Positions 1,363-13,375 of a DNA stretch of 24,000 nt are shown here, piece by piece (positions within the stretch are counted from its first letter, which is position 1; the number at the start of each line of letters is the position of its first letter). Where the stretch lies: positions 63,822-87,821 of the forward strand of contig CAIRES010000072.1 in NCBI GenBank assembly GCA_903877645.1, given 5' to 3'. Source of the stretch: an uncultured Bacteroidota bacterium. GTDB taxonomy: Bacteria; Bacteroidota; Bacteroidia; Chitinophagales; Chitinophagaceae. The notes beneath the pieces are model-generated. The model did not search any database. It saw only the letters and a list, made by a program, of their open reading frames with translations, and was not told the DNA's origin. The translations under genes and the position numbers were made by a program.

Positions 1363-1905
1363 CTATTGTTTAGTAAAGTTGCTGAACGTATATGTTGTAG
1401 TTGTTGATCCCGCTTCTTGTAAAACAATAGAAGCTGTTGTGCCGGAAATAGTACCTGTACCTGTGTAAGTTAATCCTGCGCTTGTTGTAGAATTTACCGT
1501 GAATATAGCACCGGAAGCTGTGAATTGACTAAGTGTAACAGTCAAAACAGGAACACCTGCAGTTCCGCCTGTAGCATCCTGAATAGTAAGATTCATTGTA
1601 GTATAGTCTGTAGAACTGCTTGGAATTGAGAATAACATCCTGAAATTAGTATATGTATCACCTAAATTGTCTGTACCTGTGCCTACATACGTATTTGCAT
1701 ATGAAGTTTCGTAGATGGTGGTACAATTGTCAGCAACAGTTGTGCCGGTAGGGCAGGTACAAGTACCGCCGCTACAAGTGCCACCATGCTGGCAGGTTAC
1801 TCCTTTACATGCATCTTTGTTGCAGGAAGTGTACAATACGGCGCCGAATGCGCTCACAGCAAGAATTGCAGTTAATGCAATGTGTTTAATTGATTTCATA
1901 AGCAT
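1363..1905 (-). CDS. Lipoprotein with N-terminal EGF-like six-cysteine module and Thr/Ser/Gly-rich beta domain (paralog 1)
   Basis: Signal peptide ...AVLYTSC, then C-x4-C-x5-C-x4-C-x-C-x9-C (ACKGVTCQHGGTCSGGTCTCPTGTTVADNC). C-terminus ...TYTGTGTISGTTASI...FSNFTKQ is shared with the neighbour. The longest ORF starts at 1929, but a -7 box (1927-1934) lies inside that extension. The start is therefore probably ATG 1905 (MLMKSIKH) or 1899 (MKSIKH). Confidence 0.75.
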   Translation of the reverse strand: MLMKSIKHIALTAILAVSAFGAVLYTSCNKDACKGVTCQHGGTCSGGTCTCPTGTTVADNCTTIYETSYANTYVGTGTDNLGDTYTNFRMLFSIPSSSTDYTTMNLTIQDATGGTAGVPVLTVTLSQFTASGAIFTVNSTTSAGLTYTGTGTISGTTASIVLQEAGSTTTTYTFSNFTKQ

Positions 1906-1926
1906 TTGTTTGTTTAAAAATTTGAG

Positions 1927-1957
1927 CAAAAATAACTTTTAATGGCATTTCACCAAA
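1927..1957 (-). promoter_or_regulatory. Bacteroidetes sigma-A-type promoter for EGF-like lipoprotein 1
   Basis: On the minus strand: TTTG (1957-1954), 19-nt spacer, TATTTTTG (1934-1927). This is an exact match to -33 TTTG / -7 TAnnTTTG with canonical spacing. Confidence 0.6.
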
Positions 1958-2019
1958 TACGTAACGTAGTGGCGCTAAGAATTCTACAAAATCGTGCCAA
2001 CAACTCTAGATCACACAGG

Positions 2020-2571
2020 TTATTGTTTCACAAAGTTGGTCATCGTGACCGTAACCGGCGTTGCGCCAGTCTGGGTTTCCACAAGGTTCAGCGATGCTGA
2101 TGAAGTGCTGATGGTACCCGAACCGGTATAGGTGATAGTTCCTGATGTTGTTGCGGCTATCGTAAAAGAAGAGCCGCTTGCGCTGTTATTGGCCAGTGTT
2201 ACAGACATATTTACATCTCCTCCGCTGCCATGCCAGGTCAGCGACATCAGGTTGTAGTTTGCGGTGTCTGTACCTGCCTGAAAGTTCAGCGTATTGGCAG
2301 TATCCGAATGGTTGGTGTTATTAGTATCCAACACAGTGTAGGTATATAGCGCGTTGCCCTTATATTTATTGGCATATATTTCCCTGTACAGTATCTCGCA
2401 GTTATTCCCGCCAATACCGGGCTTACAGGTACAACTTCCCCCATTACACGAGCCATTGTTGATGCAGGTGGTGTTTTTGCATACATCTTTTTGGCAGGAG
2501 GTATACATGATCCCGCAAAGAGCGCTGATGGTAATAATGGCGGTTAATACTGCTTGCCTGGTTGCTCTCAT
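2020..2571 (-). CDS. Lipoprotein with N-terminal EGF-like six-cysteine module (paralog 2)
   Basis: MRATRQAVLTAIITISALCGIMYTSC, then VCKNTTCINNGSCNGGSCTCKPGIGGNNCE (same Cys spacing; CxCxxGxxGxxC-like end). C-terminus ...TYTGSGTISTSSASL...MTNFVKQ. The longest ORF starts at 2601 but overlaps the -7 box (2599-2606). ATG 2571 is the first start downstream of the predicted TSS. Confidence 0.75.
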   Translation of the reverse strand: MRATRQAVLTAIITISALCGIMYTSCQKDVCKNTTCINNGSCNGGSCTCKPGIGGNNCEILYREIYANKYKGNALYTYTVLDTNNTNHSDTANTLNFQAGTDTANYNLMSLTWHGSGGDVNMSVTLANNSASGSSFTIAATTSGTITYTGSGTISTSSASLNLVETQTGATPVTVTMTNFVKQ

Positions 2572-2598
2572 AATTTGCCTGTTGTTATTAATATTGTT

Positions 2599-2630
2599 CA
2601 AAGATAAGATATACCACTAATTACAGCAAA
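2599..2630 (-). promoter_or_regulatory. Bacteroidetes sigma-A-type promoter for EGF-like lipoprotein 2
   Basis: On the minus strand: TTTG (2630-2627), 20-nt spacer, TATCTTTG (2606-2599). The -7 box ends 27 nt (28 positions) upstream of ATG 2571, the same distance as from the paralog-1 box to ATG 1899. Confidence 0.6.
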
Positions 2631-2679: not shown

Positions 2680-2696
2680 ATGTGGAATACCCCGAA

Positions 2697-4184
2697 ATGG
2701 TAAAAACGCTTTTGATATGGATTTTATTGCTTGCTACCTGCTATTCAAATAGCCGGGCAGCGGTATATACCTATGATTATTCCCCGAACTGTGCTAAGGC
2801 CTACCAGTGCTATATGGCGCTGCATGAAGATGAGGGCCGGAACTACATTATATCCGAGATCAGGGCAAACCCTTACAACCTGATGGCGGTATATGTAGCC
2901 GACTATGAAGATTGTACGCTGCTGCTCATCAATTGCGACCGGCATGAGTATGATGAAAGGGCTGCACACCTGGCTTCCCGCATCGACCTTATAGATAAGG
3001 GGAATAAGGCATCGCCCTGGTACCGTTTTTGCAAGGCGGGTATTTACTTTCATTGGGCCATAATAGCTACCCGTTTCGGGGAGCAATATAAAGCGGCGGT
3101 CAACTTTCACAAATCGTTTGCCCTGCTCAAAGAAAACAAAAGGCTGTTTCCGGGGTTTGATTATAACAACGTGTATTCGGGCCTGGAGGAAGCAGTAGTG
3201 GGTGCCTTGCCCGGCAACTACAAATGGCTGGCATCCATATTTGGTATGAAAGGCGATATAAAGAAAGGAGTGGCACAATTGGACTTGTTTCTCAAAGCAC
3301 ATTCTGCCGGGCAGCCCATGTATGCCGAAACGCAATTGTATAACCTGTTTACCCGCTATTATCTTGCTGCACAGCAGGACGAAGCCTGGGCCTTCATGAA
3401 TGGCAGCCAATTTACTACCACTAATAACCTGCTCAACGCCTTTACTAAAATAACGATAGCCCTCGACTATAAAAAGGCAGACGCAGCCATTGCTACCCTG
3501 AAGGAAGCAACAACAGACGCTTACTGCCGCAGGTATCCTTTCTTTGATCACCTTTGGGGTGTGGCATTGCTCGCAAAAGGCGATATGGCCTGCAATGGCT
3601 ATTTTACTAAATACCTGAAAACCACGAAAAGTGATGTGCATATAAAAGACGACTGGCAGAAGATGGCTTATGCCTGGTACATAGCCGGCAATATACAGGA
3701 GGCCGCTTATTGCCGGCAGCAGATCAGCAAAAACGGAACAGAACGGATAGATGCAGACAAGCAGGCGGCAAAATTTGCGGAAGATAAAGCCTGGCCGTTA
3801 CAGAAACTGTTACAGGCAAGGCTGCTGGCCGATGGTGGTTATAATGATAAGGCATTGCAGCTACTCAATAGCATAGACAGAAAGGAGCTCACCAACCCTG
3901 CCGATAAAACCGAGTATTTGTTCCGCCTCGGCAATATCTATGAAGCGAAAGGGGACAATAAAAGTGCACTTGAGCATTTTCAAACTGCTATCCTCGCTGG
4001 GAAAGAACTGCATGGCCAGTATGCCGCAAGGGCGGCGCTGCGCATGGGCATCATATACGAGTACAGCGGCATGAAAGTGAAAGCTGTGGCACTCTATAAA
4101 GAATGCCTCGGTATGCCTGCCCACGAAATGCAAAACTCAATAGATCAGCAAGCCAAAGCAGGCATCAACCGCATAGAAGGGTAG
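2697..4184 (+). CDS. Secreted TPR-like / all-helical repeat protein of unknown function
   Basis: MVKTLLIWILLLATCYSNSRA is a signal peptide. The ~495-aa helical protein has TPR-like C-terminal repeats (YLFRLGNIYEAKGDNKSALEHFQTAI; AALRMGIIYEYSGMKVKAVALYKECL). The ORF track gives 2682 (GTG) as an alternative start. Confidence 0.7.
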   Translation: MVKTLLIWILLLATCYSNSRAAVYTYDYSPNCAKAYQCYMALHEDEGRNYIISEIRANPYNLMAVYVADYEDCTLLLINCDRHEYDERAAHLASRIDLIDKGNKASPWYRFCKAGIYFHWAIIATRFGEQYKAAVNFHKSFALLKENKRLFPGFDYNNVYSGLEEAVVGALPGNYKWLASIFGMKGDIKKGVAQLDLFLKAHSAGQPMYAETQLYNLFTRYYLAAQQDEAWAFMNGSQFTTTNNLLNAFTKITIALDYKKADAAIATLKEATTDAYCRRYPFFDHLWGVALLAKGDMACNGYFTKYLKTTKSDVHIKDDWQKMAYAWYIAGNIQEAAYCRQQISKNGTERIDADKQAAKFAEDKAWPLQKLLQARLLADGGYNDKALQLLNSIDRKELTNPADKTEYLFRLGNIYEAKGDNKSALEHFQTAILAGKELHGQYAARAALRMGIIYEYSGMKVKAVALYKECLGMPAHEMQNSIDQQAKAGINRIEG

Positions 4185-4187
4185 TGG

Positions 4188-4811
4188 CTATATCTTTTCT
4201 ATTGCATCGACCCATTGGTTGAACAACCGCACTTCTATAGCACATACATCGGCGGCCAGCTTTTCCCATTCGGGGTGAAACTGCACCAGCATACGCTCCA
4301 TCTCGGCAAGGTGGCCTTCTTCTTCTGCAATGATAGATTTTACATTCACTTTCGATTTGTGCCTCGTCAGCGCTTCCTGGTAAATGCCATAAAGCATATC
4401 GGCACGTACTTCGATGGAATAAGTGACCAGCAGGTAAGCGCCATGTTTTAAAGCACGGCCTTCCAGGTGCAGTTTATTTTTTAGGTACCTGCATGCTTCT
4501 ACATCCAGCATGTTCAGGTAGTGGTGGCTTTCTATTGGGGCCAGCAGGTATGGGTACGAGTAGTCGGGGCAACCATCTTTGGTCAGCTTGCCTATTTGCT
4601 TCTTCAGGTAGTAAGCATGACGGGCTTCTTCGGCTGCATGTTTCAACACTATAAGCGTAGTATTTACCGGGTGTTCGTACTTCGATATTTTACGTGCCCC
4701 TGTATTCTCCATCATAGAGAGGCTGTTCAGCCACTTGGCATGCAGGTCATCGTTCACTACTACTTTCTCAGCTATCCTGCTTAATTTTTCTTCCTGTTTC
4801 ATCGGTTGCAA
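4188..4811 (-). CDS. Ferritin-like di-iron-carboxylate protein (full E / ExxH / E / ExxH ligand set), last gene of the bio operon; function unknown
   Basis: 207 aa, predicted helical. Candidate ligands are E35 (MMENTGA), E62-x-x-H65 (AAEEARH; nt 4617-4628), E134 (YSIEVRA) and E164-x-x-H167 (AEEEGH; nt 4311-4322). E-to-ExxH spacings are 27 and 30 residues, as in four-helix-bundle di-iron oxidases. Same strand as bioA, 25 nt downstream of it. Confidence 0.7.
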   Translation of the reverse strand: MQPMKQEEKLSRIAEKVVVNDDLHAKWLNSLSMMENTGARKISKYEHPVNTTLIVLKHAAEEARHAYYLKKQIGKLTKDGCPDYSYPYLLAPIESHHYLNMLDVEACRYLKNKLHLEGRALKHGAYLLVTYSIEVRADMLYGIYQEALTRHKSKVNVKSIIAEEEGHLAEMERMLVQFHPEWEKLAADVCAIEVRLFNQWVDAIEKI

Positions 4812-4836
4812 ATGTAACTTTTTTTTTGGGATAGGG

Positions 4837-6114
4837 TTAGTTGTTTAGCTGTCCGAGCAACTTATGGATGCGCTCATATATGTACGTCAGGTCCTCATCA
4901 GTAATGCAATAGGGTGGTATCAGGTAGATGATATTCCCCAATGGCCGCATAATGATTCCTTCCTCCAGGAAGAACCGGTACAGTACATCGCGCATATTGT
5001 GGTGGTACGATGGATTGTCTGTTTTCAATTCAATGGCAATGATCGTCCCGGTCTGCCGTACATCTGCGATGAGCTGATGGCCCGCCAATGTCTGTGCAAA
5101 AGCTGCATGTCGTTCGGCTATATGTTTTCTCTGTTCAGTACAGCCATCGGCCAATAGAAGATCGAGGCTCGCCAGCGCCGCAGCGCATATCGCCGGGTTG
5201 CCGGTGAAGGAGTGGCCGTGATAGAGCATTTTCATGCGGTCATCTTCGTAAAACGCATCGAATATAGCCTGGGTGGTAGCCGTAACACCCAGGGGCATAC
5301 TACCGCCGGTAAGCCCCTTGGACAGGCATACTATATCGGGCGCAGTAGTGATATGGTCGCACGCAAAGAGCTTACCCGTTCTGCCAAACCCGGTCATCAC
5401 CTCATCGGCGATCACAAGCGTATTGTGTTTCTTAGCCACCCTGAAATACTGATCCAGTACCTCCCGGCTGTACATACACATGCCTGCCGATCCTTGCACC
5501 AGCGGCTCCACGATGAGCGCTGCCACATCACCCTTTTGTAATGCCTCCTTCAATATGCCGATGCTCTCCGATACTTGATCTTTTGCAGGAAACGGGATGA
5601 ATGTTACATCAAACAAAAGATCAGTAAACGCCTCCGTAAACACACTCCTGCCACTCACCGACATGGCGCCGAATGTATCGCCATGATAGGCGTTCTCCAG
5701 CGCTACTATCCGTGTTTTCTTCACCCCTTTATTTTTCCAGTATTGCAGCGCCATTTTCAACGCCACCTCTACGGCAGTAGACCCATTGTCTGAATAGAAT
5801 ATCTTACGCATATCGCCGGGCAGTATGTCCAGCAGCCGTTCTGCGAGCAGCACTGCAGGCTCATGTGTAAAACCTGCAAAAATACAATGCTCCAGCACCG
5901 CCAGTTGCTCACTCACCTTTTGTGCGATGTAGGGGTGTGCATGGCCGTGCAGATTCACCCACCACGATGATATAGCGTCAACGTATTTTTTGCCATCTTC
6001 GTCATACAAATAAGCGCCTTCACCCTTAGTGATGGCTATAGCCTCAGGCCATGCCTTCATTGGTGTGTAAGGATGCCATATTACCTGCCTGTCGCGTTCT
6101 TTTATCGTAGCCAT
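4837..6114 (-). CDS. bioA: Adenosylmethionine-8-amino-7-oxononanoate aminotransferase
   Basis: 425 aa class-III PLP aminotransferase: VIWHPYT, WWVNLHGH, DEVMTGFGRTGKLFA, SKGLTGG (PLP Lys). Its ATG immediately follows the bioD stop with no gap. Confidence 0.93.
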   Translation of the reverse strand: MATIKERDRQVIWHPYTPMKAWPEAIAITKGEGAYLYDEDGKKYVDAISSWWVNLHGHAHPYIAQKVSEQLAVLEHCIFAGFTHEPAVLLAERLLDILPGDMRKIFYSDNGSTAVEVALKMALQYWKNKGVKKTRIVALENAYHGDTFGAMSVSGRSVFTEAFTDLLFDVTFIPFPAKDQVSESIGILKEALQKGDVAALIVEPLVQGSAGMCMYSREVLDQYFRVAKKHNTLVIADEVMTGFGRTGKLFACDHITTAPDIVCLSKGLTGGSMPLGVTATTQAIFDAFYEDDRMKMLYHGHSFTGNPAICAAALASLDLLLADGCTEQRKHIAERHAAFAQTLAGHQLIADVRQTGTIIAIELKTDNPSYHHNMRDVLYRFFLEEGIIMRPLGNIIYLIPPYCITDEDLTYIYERIHKLLGQLNN

Positions 6115-6756
6115 TTATTCGGTTGGTATGTTCAAAGCCCTTTGTAAATTTTCCCTGATATCATTCGCACATTGCTGTACACTGGTTTTATCCAGCTTAT
6201 CTATGTGCGGTATTCGTGCTATCACCTGCACACCCGCATACTGCTCAATAAAGCTTTCAGACGACTTATATGCTGCGCCGCAGATCACAATACCCAACAG
6301 GTCGATACCCCTGCTTTTCAGCACCTCTATACTCAGCAGCGTATGATTGATACTGCCTAAATAATTTTGCACCACTAATATAGAAGGGAGGCTGTAATGT
6401 GCTACAAAATCAGCCATGGTAGTGTTGCCTGACATAGGCGATAATATCCCCCCTGCCGTTTCCACCAGTAATACCTTATCTGTCTTCGGCCATTTAAATT
6501 TGGTGTAGTCTATCACCACCCCATCTATCGCTGCAGCAGCATGTGGCGACATAGGTTGCGTCAGTAACAAAGCTTCCGGGTGTACCCTTTCTTCGCCGTT
6601 CATCAATAGTTGTTTTACTACTACTGCATCCCTTTCTTCGATACCGGCCTGCACGGGCTTCCAGTAATCAGCCCCTATCGCTTCCGCTATCACAGCCGAT
6701 GCCACCGTTTTACCGATGCCTGTATGTATGCCCAGTATGGCTATTGAATAATTCAT
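6115..6756 (-). CDS. bioD: Dethiobiotin synthetase
   Basis: MNYSIAILGIHTGIGKTV carries the P-loop GxxTxxGKT. Context is between bioF and bioA. The ORF-track start at 6798 is a TTG codon adding 14 non-conserved residues, so ATG 6756 is preferred. Confidence 0.88.
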   Translation of the reverse strand: MNYSIAILGIHTGIGKTVASAVIAEAIGADYWKPVQAGIEERDAVVVKQLLMNGEERVHPEALLLTQPMSPHAAAAIDGVVIDYTKFKWPKTDKVLLVETAGGILSPMSGNTTMADFVAHYSLPSILVVQNYLGSINHTLLSIEVLKSRGIDLLGIVICGAAYKSSESFIEQYAGVQVIARIPHIDKLDKTSVQQCANDIRENLQRALNIPTE

Positions 6757-6798
6757 TGGATCAAAAGTAAGGATTGTAAGAATACCCTTCGGCTTCAA

Positions 6799-7926
6799 TC
6801 AAGGGTTTCGTATGCACTCAAACAACATATCCACCTCTTCGGTCGTATTAAACGTATGCAGGCAAACCCTCAGCCGCTCCATGCCTACTGGTACTGTAGG
6901 TTGTAATATCGGGTTTACTTGCAATCCAGCTTGTTGCAGCCGTGTTGCCATTTCCTTACATCGTCCATTGTCACCGATCACTAAAGCCTGTATCGCACTC
7001 CGGCTATTTCTCCAGTTTACATTCCCCGATTCCTGTATCCGCATCCTGAAATGATCGATCAGGTCATGCAGCGCCTTATTCGAAAACCCATTGCCCGCCA
7101 GGTGGTCATATGCGGCTTTTATAGCTGCCACACTATGCCCCGGCAACGCAGTGGTATATATAAATGATCGTGCAAAATTGATAAGGTATTGTTGCAGCAA
7201 TGTGCTGCCCACCACTACTGCACCATGGCATCCCAATGCCTTACCAAATGTATGTACCCGTGCGAAAACCCTGTCCTGCAAGTTTAATAGACAAACGAGT
7301 CCCTCACCATGATTGCCGAATACCCCGGTAGCATGTGCCTCATCTACGATTAGTTGCGCATCGTGCGTTTCGCATAAGGCCACTAATTCGGTAAGCGGCG
7401 CCATATCGCCGTCCATCGAATACACAGATTCCACTACTACCAGCAGAGGCCCTTGCTCCCTGTATTTCTTTAATTGCTCCTCCAGTTCGTGCACATCATT
7501 GTGTCCGAATTTGTACTTGCGGGTACACTGGCTCAGCCTTACGCCATCTATGATGCTGGCGTGGCACAGCTCATCATAAAGTATCGTGGTATGTCTTGAT
7601 GGAATACAGGAGAGCAAACCCACATTAGCATCATATCCTGAGTTGAATAGCAAAGCCGCTTCAGCTTTATGAAAGGATGCGATGAGCGTTTCTAATTCTT
7701 CGGTCTGTACGTTATTGCCCGATAACAAACGTGATCCTGTCGATCCCGTGCTTTGTCCGGTATGAATATTAGGTACCAGGCTTTGTAGTAAGCCGGTTGT
7801 CGCAAGACCCAGGTAGTCGTTAGAAAAAAAGTCAATAGCTTGTCTGCCCACAGGCAATGCCCGCAGGTTTCCGGCCTGTGTTCTTTCCTCCAGTTTATGG
7901 CTCAGGTGTTGCTCAACACGGTTCAT
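6799..7926 (-). CDS. bioF: 8-amino-7-oxononanoate synthase
   Basis: 375 aa alpha-oxoamine synthase: [30 protein letters not shown] (PLP Lys). Its start overlaps the bioB stop by 4 nt (ATGA). Confidence 0.92.
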
Positions 7927-8936
7927 GCGATCTGTGCGGCAGCCTGTTTGTGCTTCGGCAGCCCATCGGCAAATGCAGCTTTTGGTGTCAGCCCAAGTAT
8001 GCGGAACATTTCCTTATCCGAATTGAATTCCGGGTTGGGCGTGGTCAGCAACTTATCTCCCGCAAAAATGGAGTTAGCGCCAGCCATAAAGCACATGCCC
8101 TGCTCGGCTACAGAAAGCTCTAACCTGCCTGCGGATAGCCTTACAGCCGATCCGGGCATTACTATGCGTGCAGTAGCTATCATGCGCACCAGTTCGTCAA
8201 ACGGCACACGGCTGTTATCGGCAAGTGGTGTGCCGGCTACAGGCACCAGTACATTGATCGGCACTGATTCGGGGTGCTGTGGCAGGTTGGCCAGGGTCAG
8301 CAGCATACCCACACGGTCTGCATCTGTTTCGCCGAGGCCTATGATGCCGCCACTACATACCGTAATGCCCGCCTTGCGCACATTAGAGAGAGTGTTCAAC
8401 CGGTCATCGTAGGTGCGGGTAGTGATCACCTCGCTATAATGCTCTTCTGATGTATCTACATTGTGATTGTAAGCATACAGGCCGGCTTCTGCCAGGCGTT
8501 CTGCCTGGTGTGCATTTACCATACCCAGGGTGCAGCATACTTCCATGTCCAGGCCGTTCACGGCTTTCACCATATCTATCACACGGTCAAAATCACGGTT
8601 GTCCCTTACCTCGCGCCATGCCGCACCCATGCAAAAACGGGACGCGCCTCCTGCCTTGGCGTTCTGTGCTGCTTCCAGCACTTCGTCCACCTGCATCAGC
8701 GCATGTACTTTTACACCGGTATGGTAGCGGGCTGCCTGCGGGCAATAGGAACAATCCTCTGAGCAGCCACCTGTTTTTATAGACAATAAGCTACTGATCT
8801 GTACCTCGCCGAAAACATGATACTCACGTTGCACATTCGCTGCATCAAGCATCAGTGGCAACAATGGGCGCTCATATATTTCCGTTATCTCTTCTCTTGT
8901 CCAGTTATGGCGAATAGCTTCCATATTTGCAATCAT
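7923..8936 (-). CDS. bioB: Biotin synthase (radical SAM)
   Basis: 337 aa with [10 protein letters not shown] (CxxxCxxC), YNHNVDTS and GGIIGLGE. First gene of the operon. Confidence 0.95.
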
Positions 8937-9092
8937 TTTTATTTGGCGAAACTATTCGATTTTCCGCAGGATTTGAAATTTTTTGACAACAGTAAAAGCA
9001 ATTAAGCAATATTAATTATTATGTTTTTCCATGTTTCCGTCATAGATTATTTAGCACAATCTTGTATTTTTAGGCAATACTACCCAAGCCGT

Positions 9093-11132: not shown

Positions 11133-11813
11133 ATGATGAAAAAGATTTTTTCAATATTAGCGATTGCCGTTCTTGCTGTTACAGGGTGCAAGAAAAGTAC
11201 AAGTTCCGCACCTGCCAATTCCGCCAACGTTATGTTTGTCAATGGGTGTGCAGGGACCGGGAGTATATATGTGATGGATGGCACTACAAAAATTGCCGGT
11301 GCATCTAATGTTGCATTCTTCGGCACTTCCGGCTATCAATACATTACTGCCGGCAGCCAAAGCCTGTCATTCTATGTAAGTAGCCTCGGTAGCTCTACTC
11401 CCTTAAATACTTTGTCCACGTCTTTTACAGCTAATGCGCATTATTCAGTTTTTGTAGCCGGGCTCATTACCGGTTCTTCAACACTCGTTACTACCGATGA
11501 TCTTTCTGCGCCAACTTCCGGTAATGCGAATATCAGGTTCATCAACTTGTCTTCTGATGCATTATCAGAAAACGTGTCGGTCGGCACTACAAGCATCGCC
11601 ACTTCGGTTACATCTTTGCAGGCAAGTGCATTTGCTTCCGTTGGAGCAGGTAATTTTGTGATCAAGGCCGGAGATCCGTCTAACATAAGTACTGTGGTCA
11701 GTACCGCAAGTGTTACACTTTCTGCGGGTAAGATATACACCGTCATGCTCACCGGTACGCTTGCCGGCATAGGCACATCAGCTCTTACGCTTACTGTACT
11801 TACTAATAACTGA
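11133..11813 (+). CDS. DUF4397-like lipoprotein (paralog 1 of 3)
   Basis: MMKKIFSILAIAVLAVTGCKK is a lipoprotein signal. Two half-domains open with ANVMFVNG... and ANIRFINLSSDA..., the repeated a.vRfvn.s.d pattern I associate with DUF4397. Confidence 0.7.
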   Translation: MMKKIFSILAIAVLAVTGCKKSTSSAPANSANVMFVNGCAGTGSIYVMDGTTKIAGASNVAFFGTSGYQYITAGSQSLSFYVSSLGSSTPLNTLSTSFTANAHYSVFVAGLITGSSTLVTTDDLSAPTSGNANIRFINLSSDALSENVSVGTTSIATSVTSLQASAFASVGAGNFVIKAGDPSNISTVVSTASVTLSAGKIYTVMLTGTLAGIGTSALTLTVLTNN

Positions 11814-11854
11814 TCATAGCTATTATTGTAACTGGCATGAAAATTGCTAAATTT

Positions 11855-11896
11855 ATTGCGTATCCTGTAACAATTTACGGATACGCAATTTCTTTT
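11855..11896 (+). terminator. Intrinsic terminator after DUF4397 paralog 1
   Basis: Perfect 11-bp stem ATTGCGTATCC / GGATACGCAAT (11855-11865 / 11879-11889) with a 13-nt loop, followed by TTCTTTT. Confidence 0.7.
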
Positions 11897-11922
11897 AATT
11901 TATACCCACCTAACAGGCCTTT

Positions 11923-12612
11923 ATGAAAAGACAATATGCCGTCGTGCTTTGCTTAATAAGTATCCTGGCGCTTGGTTGTAATAAAACGAAAGACAGTACC
12001 CCTGCAAATATCGCGCATGTGCAGTTTTTGAATGGCTGCGTAGCAACAGGAGATGTATACGTAGCCGATAGCCTCAAAACGCTGTCTGGTGTTCGTGGCC
12101 TTGATTATGACACTGCCACAGGCTACCTGTCCCTCGCCGCAGGCGCAGAAAGAATGATGGTGTATATCAACAGCTTTGGCAATGCCCGGCCATTGCAAAC
12201 TGCATCCACCACATTTTACGCCAATAACTATTATTCTGTTTTTGCAGGGGGCATTATTACCAACCCTTCTTTTTTTGTAACTGACGATGACCTCTCCGCA
12301 CCTGCACAAGGTATGGCCAAGATCAGGTTCGTCAACCTGTCTGCTGATACGCTTTCCGAAACGGTGATCGTAGGCAGCAATCTGCTGGAAGTACATGTTA
12401 ATACTGCAACCTGTACGCCATATCATACTGTGATTGCCGGCAAATACGTTATTAAAACGTACGACCCCGCTAAGGCAGGTACTACTGACAGCCTCTTACC
12501 GCACACGTACCTTGCCGATAGTATCTATACAGTAGCACTTACCGGTAGGGGTGTAGATAGCCTTGACTATCCCCGTCACCTTACCCTCTTTCTGAATGAC
12601 CCGAACAAATAG
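11923..12612 (+). CDS. DUF4397-like lipoprotein (paralog 2 of 3)
   Basis: MKRQYAVVLCLISILALGCNK signal. AHVQFLNGCVATGDVYV... and AKIRFVNLSADTLSETV... align along the full length with paralog 1 (shared DDLSAP, YSVF.(A/G)G.IT). Confidence 0.7.
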   Translation: MKRQYAVVLCLISILALGCNKTKDSTPANIAHVQFLNGCVATGDVYVADSLKTLSGVRGLDYDTATGYLSLAAGAERMMVYINSFGNARPLQTASTTFYANNYYSVFAGGIITNPSFFVTDDDLSAPAQGMAKIRFVNLSADTLSETVIVGSNLLEVHVNTATCTPYHTVIAGKYVIKTYDPAKAGTTDSLLPHTYLADSIYTVALTGRGVDSLDYPRHLTLFLNDPNK

Positions 12613-12634
12613 CCCATACCCCAAACTGCTTTTT

Positions 12635-13375
12635 ATGAAAAATGTTTTTGCCCTTTTTGCTTTATTCCTCTGTATATTATCTACAACGGGTTGCCGGAAG
12701 AATGATAATCCCGCGGTAAATACCAATAATGCCAATGTCATGTTTGTGAATGTAATGACTAATGGGAATTTGCCATTTTTGCTTGATGGCCACATAGGCG
12801 ACTCTGCTATTGCTTCCGCGCGGGGCCTTGGCATATGCGGTTATACGGCTTATAACACTATTCCTGTTGCAGCAAACGCGCACTTATCATATTGGGTGGG
12901 CAGTAACAAATTGGTTGACTCAATAGAAAACTTTGTTTACAACGATTTTTATTCTGCCTTTATCTGCGGCACACCATCAAAACCAAAACTGATCGTCGTA
13001 CAGGATTTTTTCAATTTACCGGCTCCAGGCTATGCATCAATCCGCTTCCTTAATTTCTGTCCCGGAGATCTTCACCTGGATTGTTATGTGAATAACGACA
13101 AGGTAGACACCATGCTGGGCTATATTGGTTCCTTTCCTTTTGGTGTGTACCTGAATTCAGGCTATGCGCCCGTCAATATCTATGACTTCATCCAGGTGCA
13201 TGCAGGCACGGCCAAATTGATCATGCAAAATGTAGCAAATACGGCCTATACTGCAGTTTACGATGACTATCAGTTGCTTGATGGGGCACAATACACCGCT
13301 ATATGTACTGATACTACTGCCAATTTGTTAAGTACCGGCCACCACCTCAAGATCACAATGATCCACAATCATTGA
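12635..13375 (+). CDS. DUF4397-like lipoprotein (paralog 3 of 3, most divergent)
   Basis: MKNVFALFALFLCILSTTGCRK signal, then ANVMFVNVMTNG... and ASIRFLNFCPGDLHLDCYV. The ORF-track start 12596 overlaps paralog 2. ATG 12635 gives a canonical lipoprotein N-terminus and a 22-nt gap. Confidence 0.65.
   Translation: MKNVFALFALFLCILSTTGCRKNDNPAVNTNNANVMFVNVMTNGNLPFLLDGHIGDSAIASARGLGICGYTAYNTIPVAANAHLSYWVGSNKLVDSIENFVYNDFYSAFICGTPSKPKLIVVQDFFNLPAPGYASIRFLNFCPGDLHLDCYVNNDKVDTMLGYIGSFPFGVYLNSGYAPVNIYDFIQVHAGTAKLIMQNVANTAYTAVYDDYQLLDGAQYTAICTDTTANLLSTGHHLKITMIHNH

Follow-up and report, generated by a model that had tools for sequence, protein, structure and literature searches.

The 24,000-nucleotide stretch of contig CAIRES010000072.1 analysed here (hereafter the window), which comes from an environmental Chitinophagaceae bacterium, carries a biotin gene cluster whose last gene very probably encodes a member of the BioE family of nonheme diiron oxygenases, the 'fourth' route to pimelate. 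All five genes of the cluster lie on the minus strand, in the order bioB, bioF, bioD, bioA and then the bioE ortholog. The original prediction had proposed that a small diiron oxidase makes a pimeloyl thioester here by O2-dependent cleavage of an acyl chain, in a manner analogous to BioI, and both the homology to characterised BioE proteins and the gene context support such a role. The diiron acyl-cleavage idea is supported but had already been published as BioE, and we regard BioE in the window as already known, since the system has been described and the Chitinophagaceae are already listed among the families that bear it.

Two papers of December 2025 describe BioE as an iron-dependent enzyme that cuts long acyl chains to the seven-carbon precursor of biotin (PMC12704756, PMC12915131). 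The BioE proteins of Elizabethkingia meningoseptica (EmBioE) and Chryseobacterium indologenes (CiBioE) are dimeric nonheme diiron oxygenases with about 2 Fe per monomer, and both rescue E. coli bioC/bioH mutants in air only (PMC12704756). In vitro the substrates are C14, C16 and C18 (not C12) chains bound to coenzyme A (acyl-CoA) or to acyl carrier protein (acyl-ACP), which are cut at C7-C8 to give pimeloyl-CoA/ACP and a Cn-7 acid, and replacing any one of the EmBioE ligands E26, E53, H56, E125, E155 and H158 abolishes function (PMC12704756). The BioE of Chlamydia psittaci (CpBioE) has been validated and behaves likewise, with E41, E68, H71, E140, E170 and H173 as its ligands; the same paper gives acyl-pocket residues for EmBioE and CpBioE alike, uses >40% identity and >85% coverage versus EmBioE as the search criterion for BioE, and names Flavobacteriaceae, Chitinophagaceae, Sphingobacteriaceae, Flectobacillaceae, Burkholderiaceae and Chlamydiaceae as BioE-bearing families (PMC12915131).

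As the EmBioE reference we used P0344, a 209-residue E. meningoseptica protein (BBD33_16475) recovered by homology search. Its identity is confirmed by the agreement of 21/21 published residue/position pairs, and its locus fits the published layout, with a divergent GntR/aminotransferase gene (bioL), bioE-bioF-bioD and then bioB-bioA. An alignment of the window protein to this reference runs without gaps over 197 of the 209 residues of EmBioE at 58% identity (E = 3e-81). This exceeds the published homology criterion and places the window protein nearer to EmBioE than CpBioE, a functional enzyme with about 40% identity to it. At a fixed offset of +6, 19 of the 21 EmBioE functional residues are identical in the window protein; the next-best offset gives 5. 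All six iron ligands are kept, in a spacing (27/3/69/30/3) that is the same in EmBioE and CpBioE, as are 13 of the 15 EmBioE residues of the hydrophobic acyl pocket and the carrier contacts, for which mutagenesis has demonstrated a requirement (L22, M25, R31, K32, I33, Y89, L90, Y117, I124, A128, L131, F188 and W191). For CpBioE, where the comparison was made with published residue numbers and not with a sequence alignment (no cluster representative fitted the Cp numbering at offset 0), 15 of 17 residues are the same when the offset is set to -9, and so are 9 of the 11 acyl-pocket residues. The nearest relatives of the window belong to Flavipsychrobacter, a genus of Chitinophagaceae.

The E/ExxH/E/ExxH ligand set that had been read in the open reading frame (ORF) behind bioA is present and is not a matter of chance, since each ligand is kept in at least 132 of 135 family sequences. 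In that set, made up of the window protein and EmBioE plus 133 sequences that represent clusters at 50% identity, E32, E59 and H62 are conserved in 132-135 sequences and E131, E161 and H164 in 132-134; the pocket tyrosines and A134 are near-invariant. Clustered at 90% identity, homologs of the window protein fall into at least 3489 groups, and at 50% identity (E <= 0.001) into 546; identity to relatives in Flavipsychrobacter and other Chitinophagales runs from 72 to 97%, and an alignment of 64 sequences has 58 invariant columns. One of the homologs, P0129 (1911 aa), was considered as an informative fusion with Peptidase_C25, in which residues 17-182 are BioE-like and share 61% identity with the window protein; it was set aside as probably a frameshift or gene-calling artefact.

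When read from TTG, the ORF at 4188-4811 has 207 aa and lies 25 nt after bioA. Homologs are 204-208 aa long and start at the methionine of MKQEE..., and for that reason the ATG at 4802 is the more likely start, with a protein of 204 aa and a spacer of 34 nt. The ligands, E35/E62xxH65/E134/E164xxH167 in TTG numbering, then become E32/E59/H62/E131/E161/H164, the numbering used throughout. What had been proposed about a fifth ORF after bioA holds for the shared strand, the 25-nt distance and the lack of a terminator-like site between the two. Minor corrections to it are that the strand is the minus one, that the 207-aa start is doubtful and that the spacer contains a promoter-like box. The search for terminator-like sites between bioA and the bioE ORF found none; across the region the frequency of such sites is not above that in shuffled sequence. 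At its other end bioE is faced by a convergent TPR gene (2682-4184, plus strand) whose stop codon lies 3 nt from that of bioE (window 4182-4190), with no terminator-like hairpin between the two stops.

The identities of bioB, bioF, bioD and bioA rest on NCBIfam matches (Table 1) with which Pfam agrees for all four. The bioF score lies below the TIGR00858 cut-off of 426 bits, and that model is still by far the top NCBIfam match. The close packing reported for the four late biotin genes was borne out by the ORF coordinates: bioB and bioF overlap by 4 bases (ATGA), the bioF stop is immediately followed by the bioD ORF, as is the bioD stop by the bioA ATG. The bioD ORF opens at TTG 6798 against the bioF stop and its Pfam match starts only at ORF residue 19; the ATG at 6756 is likelier as its start. 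A TAnnTTTG box stands at 6762-6769, before this ATG, where an internal promoter is possible, the true start being uncertain. In line with the original prediction, the Pfam-scanned ORFs of the 24 kb include no bioC/G/H/I/W/Z-type gene (methyltransferase, hydrolase, P450, pimeloyl-CoA ligase or KAS-III) and no bioK/J/V.

Table 1. Biotin cluster of the window: genes, predicted iron-ligand codons and candidate promoter regions.
Feature	Position	Strand	Basis or remark
bioB, biotin synthase, first in cluster	7923..8936	-	TIGR00433 equivalog, 393 bits vs 225-bit cut-off; Radical_SAM and BATS domains
bioF, 8-amino-7-oxononanoate synthase (takes pimeloyl thioester)	6799..7926	-	TIGR00858, E = 1.2e-107, 360 bits; Pfam Aminotran_1_2
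bioD, dethiobiotin synthase	6115..6798	-	TIGR00347, 110 bits vs 83-bit cut-off; Pfam AAA_26
bioA, adenosylmethionine-8-amino-7-oxononanoate transaminase	4837..6114	-	TIGR00508, 554 bits vs 405-bit cut-off
bioE ortholog, 204 aa, predicted diiron oxygenase making pimeloyl-CoA/ACP	4188..4802	-	Homology to EmBioE; mechanical ORF reaches TTG 4811
Codons of E32 (4707-4709), E59 (4626-4628) and H62 (4617-4619)	4617..4709	-	Helices 18-42 and 50-70; correspond to EmBioE E26/E53/H56 and CpBioE E41/E68/H71
Codons of E131 (4410-4412), E161 (4320-4322) and H164 (4311-4313)	4311..4412	-	Helices 115-147 and 155-175; correspond to EmBioE E125/E155/H158 and CpBioE E140/E170/H173
bioA-bioE spacer with Bacteroidota -7 box TACATTTG (TAnnTTTG) at 4809-4816, 14 nt before the ATG	4803..4836	-	Putative promoter
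Region of 84 bp upstream of bioB with -7-like box TAGTTTCG at 8947-8954	8937..9020	-	Candidate operon promoter

By analogy with the characterised orthologs, E32, E59, H62, E131, E161 and H164 would bind two iron ions from their positions on four long helices. With O2 and a cellular reductant, they would oxidise C7-C8 of a C14-C18 acyl-CoA or acyl-ACP bound to the enzyme and cut the bond there, so that pimeloyl-CoA/ACP is released along with a fatty acid of Cn-7 in free form. BioF, whose gene lies three genes upstream of bioE, would then join the pimeloyl thioester to alanine, and BioA, BioD and BioB would complete biotin. In this scheme bioE would be co-transcribed with bioBFDA and would in addition be transcribed from a near-leaderless promoter of its own, and its regulation would run without BioL.

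An AlphaFold2 model of the window protein, built from the 64-sequence alignment, is all-helical with seven helices and has a predicted local distance difference test score (pLDDT) of 94.6 and a predicted template-modelling score (pTM) of 0.90. E32 is placed on helix 18-42, E59 and H62 on helix 50-70, E131 on helix 115-147 and E161 and H164 on helix 155-175. These ligand-bearing helices are the four long ones, and they form two hairpins joined by a long excursion; two helix hairpins bearing the ligands are the layout expected for a ferritin-like diiron core. In a check for an internal duplication, the two halves of the protein align with each other locally, over the ExxH helices only (pairwise E = 0.0018), and global hhalign gave nothing.

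Several observations speak against the BioE assignment and have to be set beside the orthology. Neither Pfam nor NCBIfam makes a family call for the window protein, and the one Pfam match is to Rubrerythrin (PF02915), over residues 124-180, at 18.4 bits versus a cut-off of 22.8 bits (E = 0.003). When the model was compared by Foldseek with the Protein Data Bank (PDB), no match reached E <= 0.001. The top matches were AetD (a heme-oxygenase-like diiron enzyme), Sden_3740 and TenA, all weak with a best E of 0.02. The cyanobacterial aldehyde-deformylating oxygenase (cADO) was not among the top 50 PDB matches, and the best matches include no other ferritin-like oxygenase. EmBioE residues F24 and R87, both proposed carrier contacts, are replaced by M and H in the window protein. 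In the genomes of relatives, 56 of the 74 loci that could be judged have no bio gene within 10 kb, so that linkage is the minority arrangement, and tblastn with EmBioL found no BioL homolog in the window or within +/-10 kb in any of the 80 loci examined.

With regard to the fold, the AetD-type matches (PDB 8ji5 and 8tww) have a TM score of about 0.6 over about 220 columns, at 13% identity and a root mean square deviation of about 5.7 A. The window protein matched no PDB chain sequence, and the 64-sequence profile gave sub-threshold matches only versus PDB sequences, one of them sensible, an alignment to the ExxH region of bacterioferritin (E = 0.17). In the literature BioE is classed as ferritin-like, with cADO as the most similar characterised ferritin-like oxygenase (PMC12704756, PMC12915131). 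Whether the scaffold is labelled ferritin-like or heme-oxygenase-like does not affect the orthology to BioE.

With regard to the genomic context, 74 of the 80 species-representative loci have enough upstream sequence to judge adjacency to bioA. In 18 of these 74, which span Chitinophagales and Sphingobacteriales, bioA shares the strand of bioE and lies 2-139 nt upstream of it, and 13 of the 18 have the full bioB-F-D-A set. The neighbours of the stand-alone bioE genes are unrelated (GNAT, VWA/TPR, 2-oxoacid dehydrogenase E2 and phosphoesterase genes). The original prediction had named scattering of the homologs among unrelated genes as a point that would refute it, and this is partly the case: the profile shows a recurrent link to bioA together with a majority of unlinked loci. 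We do not think that the unlinked majority overturns the assignment to BioE, because the experimental data on the orthologs outweigh it. The lack of BioL extends to the ORFs of the window, among which there is no GntR/MocR regulator or GntR/aminotransferase fusion, and the BioE-BioL module of the Weeksellaceae type is not what the window holds.

Some of the loci show other arrangements. In three from Sphingobacteriales (L042, L047 and L080, from Mucilaginibacter and relatives) bioE is paired with bioA alone; the 10-kb flanks of L042 and L047 contain no bioB, bioD or same-strand bioF alongside, and L080 is a short contig that does not allow this to be judged. In four Flavipsychrobacter loci (L011, L022, L041 and L045) bioF and bioD lie about 1.9 kb apart. 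A bioC or bioG hidden in this gap was considered and rejected, as the gap in L011 (6133-7698, minus strand) holds an opposite-strand gene for a 521-aa protein with an adenylate/guanylate cyclase domain, which breaks up a bio cluster that is compact elsewhere.

Could the protein belong to the BioE family and yet do something else? A paralog whose job is not, or not only, to supply the biotin precursor, with another purpose or cleavage position and an incidental place next to bioA, seems improbable to us. Although in 56 of the 74 closest species-level loci the gene stands by itself with unrelated genes around it, those of Flavipsychrobacter that stand alone share 72-80% identity with the window protein, which marks them as orthologs and not as a separate subfamily, and genes for the synthesis of a single cofactor are frequently scattered. 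A promoter-like box of its own and a family as large and diverse as 546 clusters at 50% identity would also suit a paralog; the residues by which the pocket fixes the cleavage register of EmBioE and CpBioE are nevertheless almost all identical here, and adjacency to bioA has been seen repeatedly, in two orders.

A second proposal of the original prediction, that the protein supplies or detoxifies iron for BioB, gained no support, as orthology to a characterised acyl-chain oxygenase extends over the full length of the protein. In its general form, a ferritin- or rubrerythrin-like iron handler or peroxide detoxifier that supplies or buffers iron for the Fe-S cluster which BioB sacrifices, we consider it very improbable, even more so than the paralog. 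The protein retains the hydrophobic acyl pocket of a demonstrated acyl-chain cleaver, and in Elizabethkingia bioE groups with bioF and bioD, not with bioB. The weak Rubrerythrin match in Pfam, the weak bacterioferritin ExxH alignment and the labels 'rubrerythrin' or 'bacterioferritin' on some homologs do point towards iron handling, but every such match is below threshold. That the ORF is non-functional, a chance frame or a decaying remnant, has next to no likelihood: only the absence of a Pfam or NCBIfam family would suit it, and it is refuted by the conservation of the gene, with its thousands of homologous clusters, 77-84% identity across species, the invariant columns of the 64-sequence alignment and the pLDDT of the model. 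The assignment to BioE is preferred over all three.

In 40 of 82 loci, mostly stand-alone and some linked (L003-L020, L046-L079), a TAnnTTTG box precedes the bioE ATG by 10-15 nt; the background frequency of this motif is 0.00056 per position. This pattern points to a promoter, with a very short (near-leaderless) leader, that bioE may have retained for itself even behind bioA. Since the box is kept, bioE may be transcribed both by read-through from bioBFDA and alone. In Larkinella loci the box is at -32. The 84-bp region with TAGTTTCG is, judging from its sequence, the probable promoter of the operon, and a TAG(T/A/C)TTCGC element just before bioB occurs also in L011, L019, L022, L034, L035, L041 and L045. 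A tentative extension, which we think rather unlikely, is that in Chitinophagales and the related Cytophagales and Sphingobacteriales BioE may constitute a unit that does without BioL and has a promoter for itself and a transcript that is near-leaderless, unlinked in most species and appended to bioBFDA in some. If this were true, there would be another way of restraining BioE, which is reported to be toxic when over-expressed, and possibly a role beyond biotin such as the production of odd-chain acids.

Other ORFs of the window encode, by Pfam, a DUF4337 protein, EGF-like lipoproteins, a TPR histidine kinase, three DUF4397 proteins, an M13 peptidase, an OmpA-family protein, a protein with a type IX secretion system (T9SS) tail, a fused 2-oxoacid dehydrogenase E1, a response regulator and RpiB. 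The DUF4397 domains occur in each of three paralogous lipoprotein-like genes in tandem at 11133-13375 (plus strand). At 1363-2601 (minus strand) there are two tandem paralogs for small Cys-rich, Thr/Ser-rich EGF-like proteins with N-terminal signal-like segments; their match to the teneurin-type EGF family is sub-threshold, and a TAnnTTTG box precedes each (1934 and 2606).

In the biotin synthesis of Bacteroidota, the pimelate arm was the part that varied and was often missing, and BioE fills this gap. The window adds an unannotated example; what remains is a gap in annotation, besides minor variations in gene order, in the lack of BioL and in the separate promoter box. With few exceptions the homologs carry the label 'hypothetical protein', 'rubrerythrin' or 'bacterioferritin', and there is no BioE model in Pfam or in NCBIfam release 20 (June 2026). 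Because the family is mislabelled and has no Pfam or NCBIfam model, Chitinophagaceae and their relatives would be wrongly scored as biotin auxotrophs in metabolic reconstructions. The BioL-free bioBFDA-E order and the conserved promoter box add a little to the published story and do not amount to a new system.

Compared with other enzymes of oxidative C-C chemistry, the window protein resembles AetD-type enzymes in being, by its model, a seven-helix diiron protein. AetD-type heme-oxygenase-like enzymes have a three-His/three-carboxylate site, whereas in the window protein four carboxylates are combined with two His in ferritin-type E/ExxH pairs. The ligand motif is the same in cADO, which has a substrate tunnel for fatty chains. 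A functional parallel is BioI (CYP107H1) of Bacillus subtilis, since the predicted net reaction, an O2-dependent C7-C8 cleavage of long acyl-ACP to a pimeloyl thioester that feeds BioF, is the same. BioI is however a heme P450 and the window protein a predicted 204-aa nonheme diiron helical bundle in which Pfam finds no P450 domain, and the folds and cofactors of the two are unrelated. Among BioE systems, that of Chlamydia psittaci resembles the window in having a bio cluster without BioL; the papers of one group differ on this point, with bioL placed upstream of bioE in C. psittaci in one (PMC12704756) and Chlamydia described as lacking BioL in the other (PMC12915131). The BioE proteins of Elizabethkingia and Chryseobacterium share with the window protein a length of about 205 aa, the spacing of the ligands and a link to the late bio genes. 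The gene order differs, being bioB-F-D-A-E in the window and bioE-F-D plus bioB-A in Elizabethkingia, and the divergent MocR-type bioL is present in Elizabethkingia and absent from the window. The two systems also differ in their source, a Weeksellaceae pathogen in the case of Elizabethkingia and an environmental member of the Chitinophagaceae in the case of the window.

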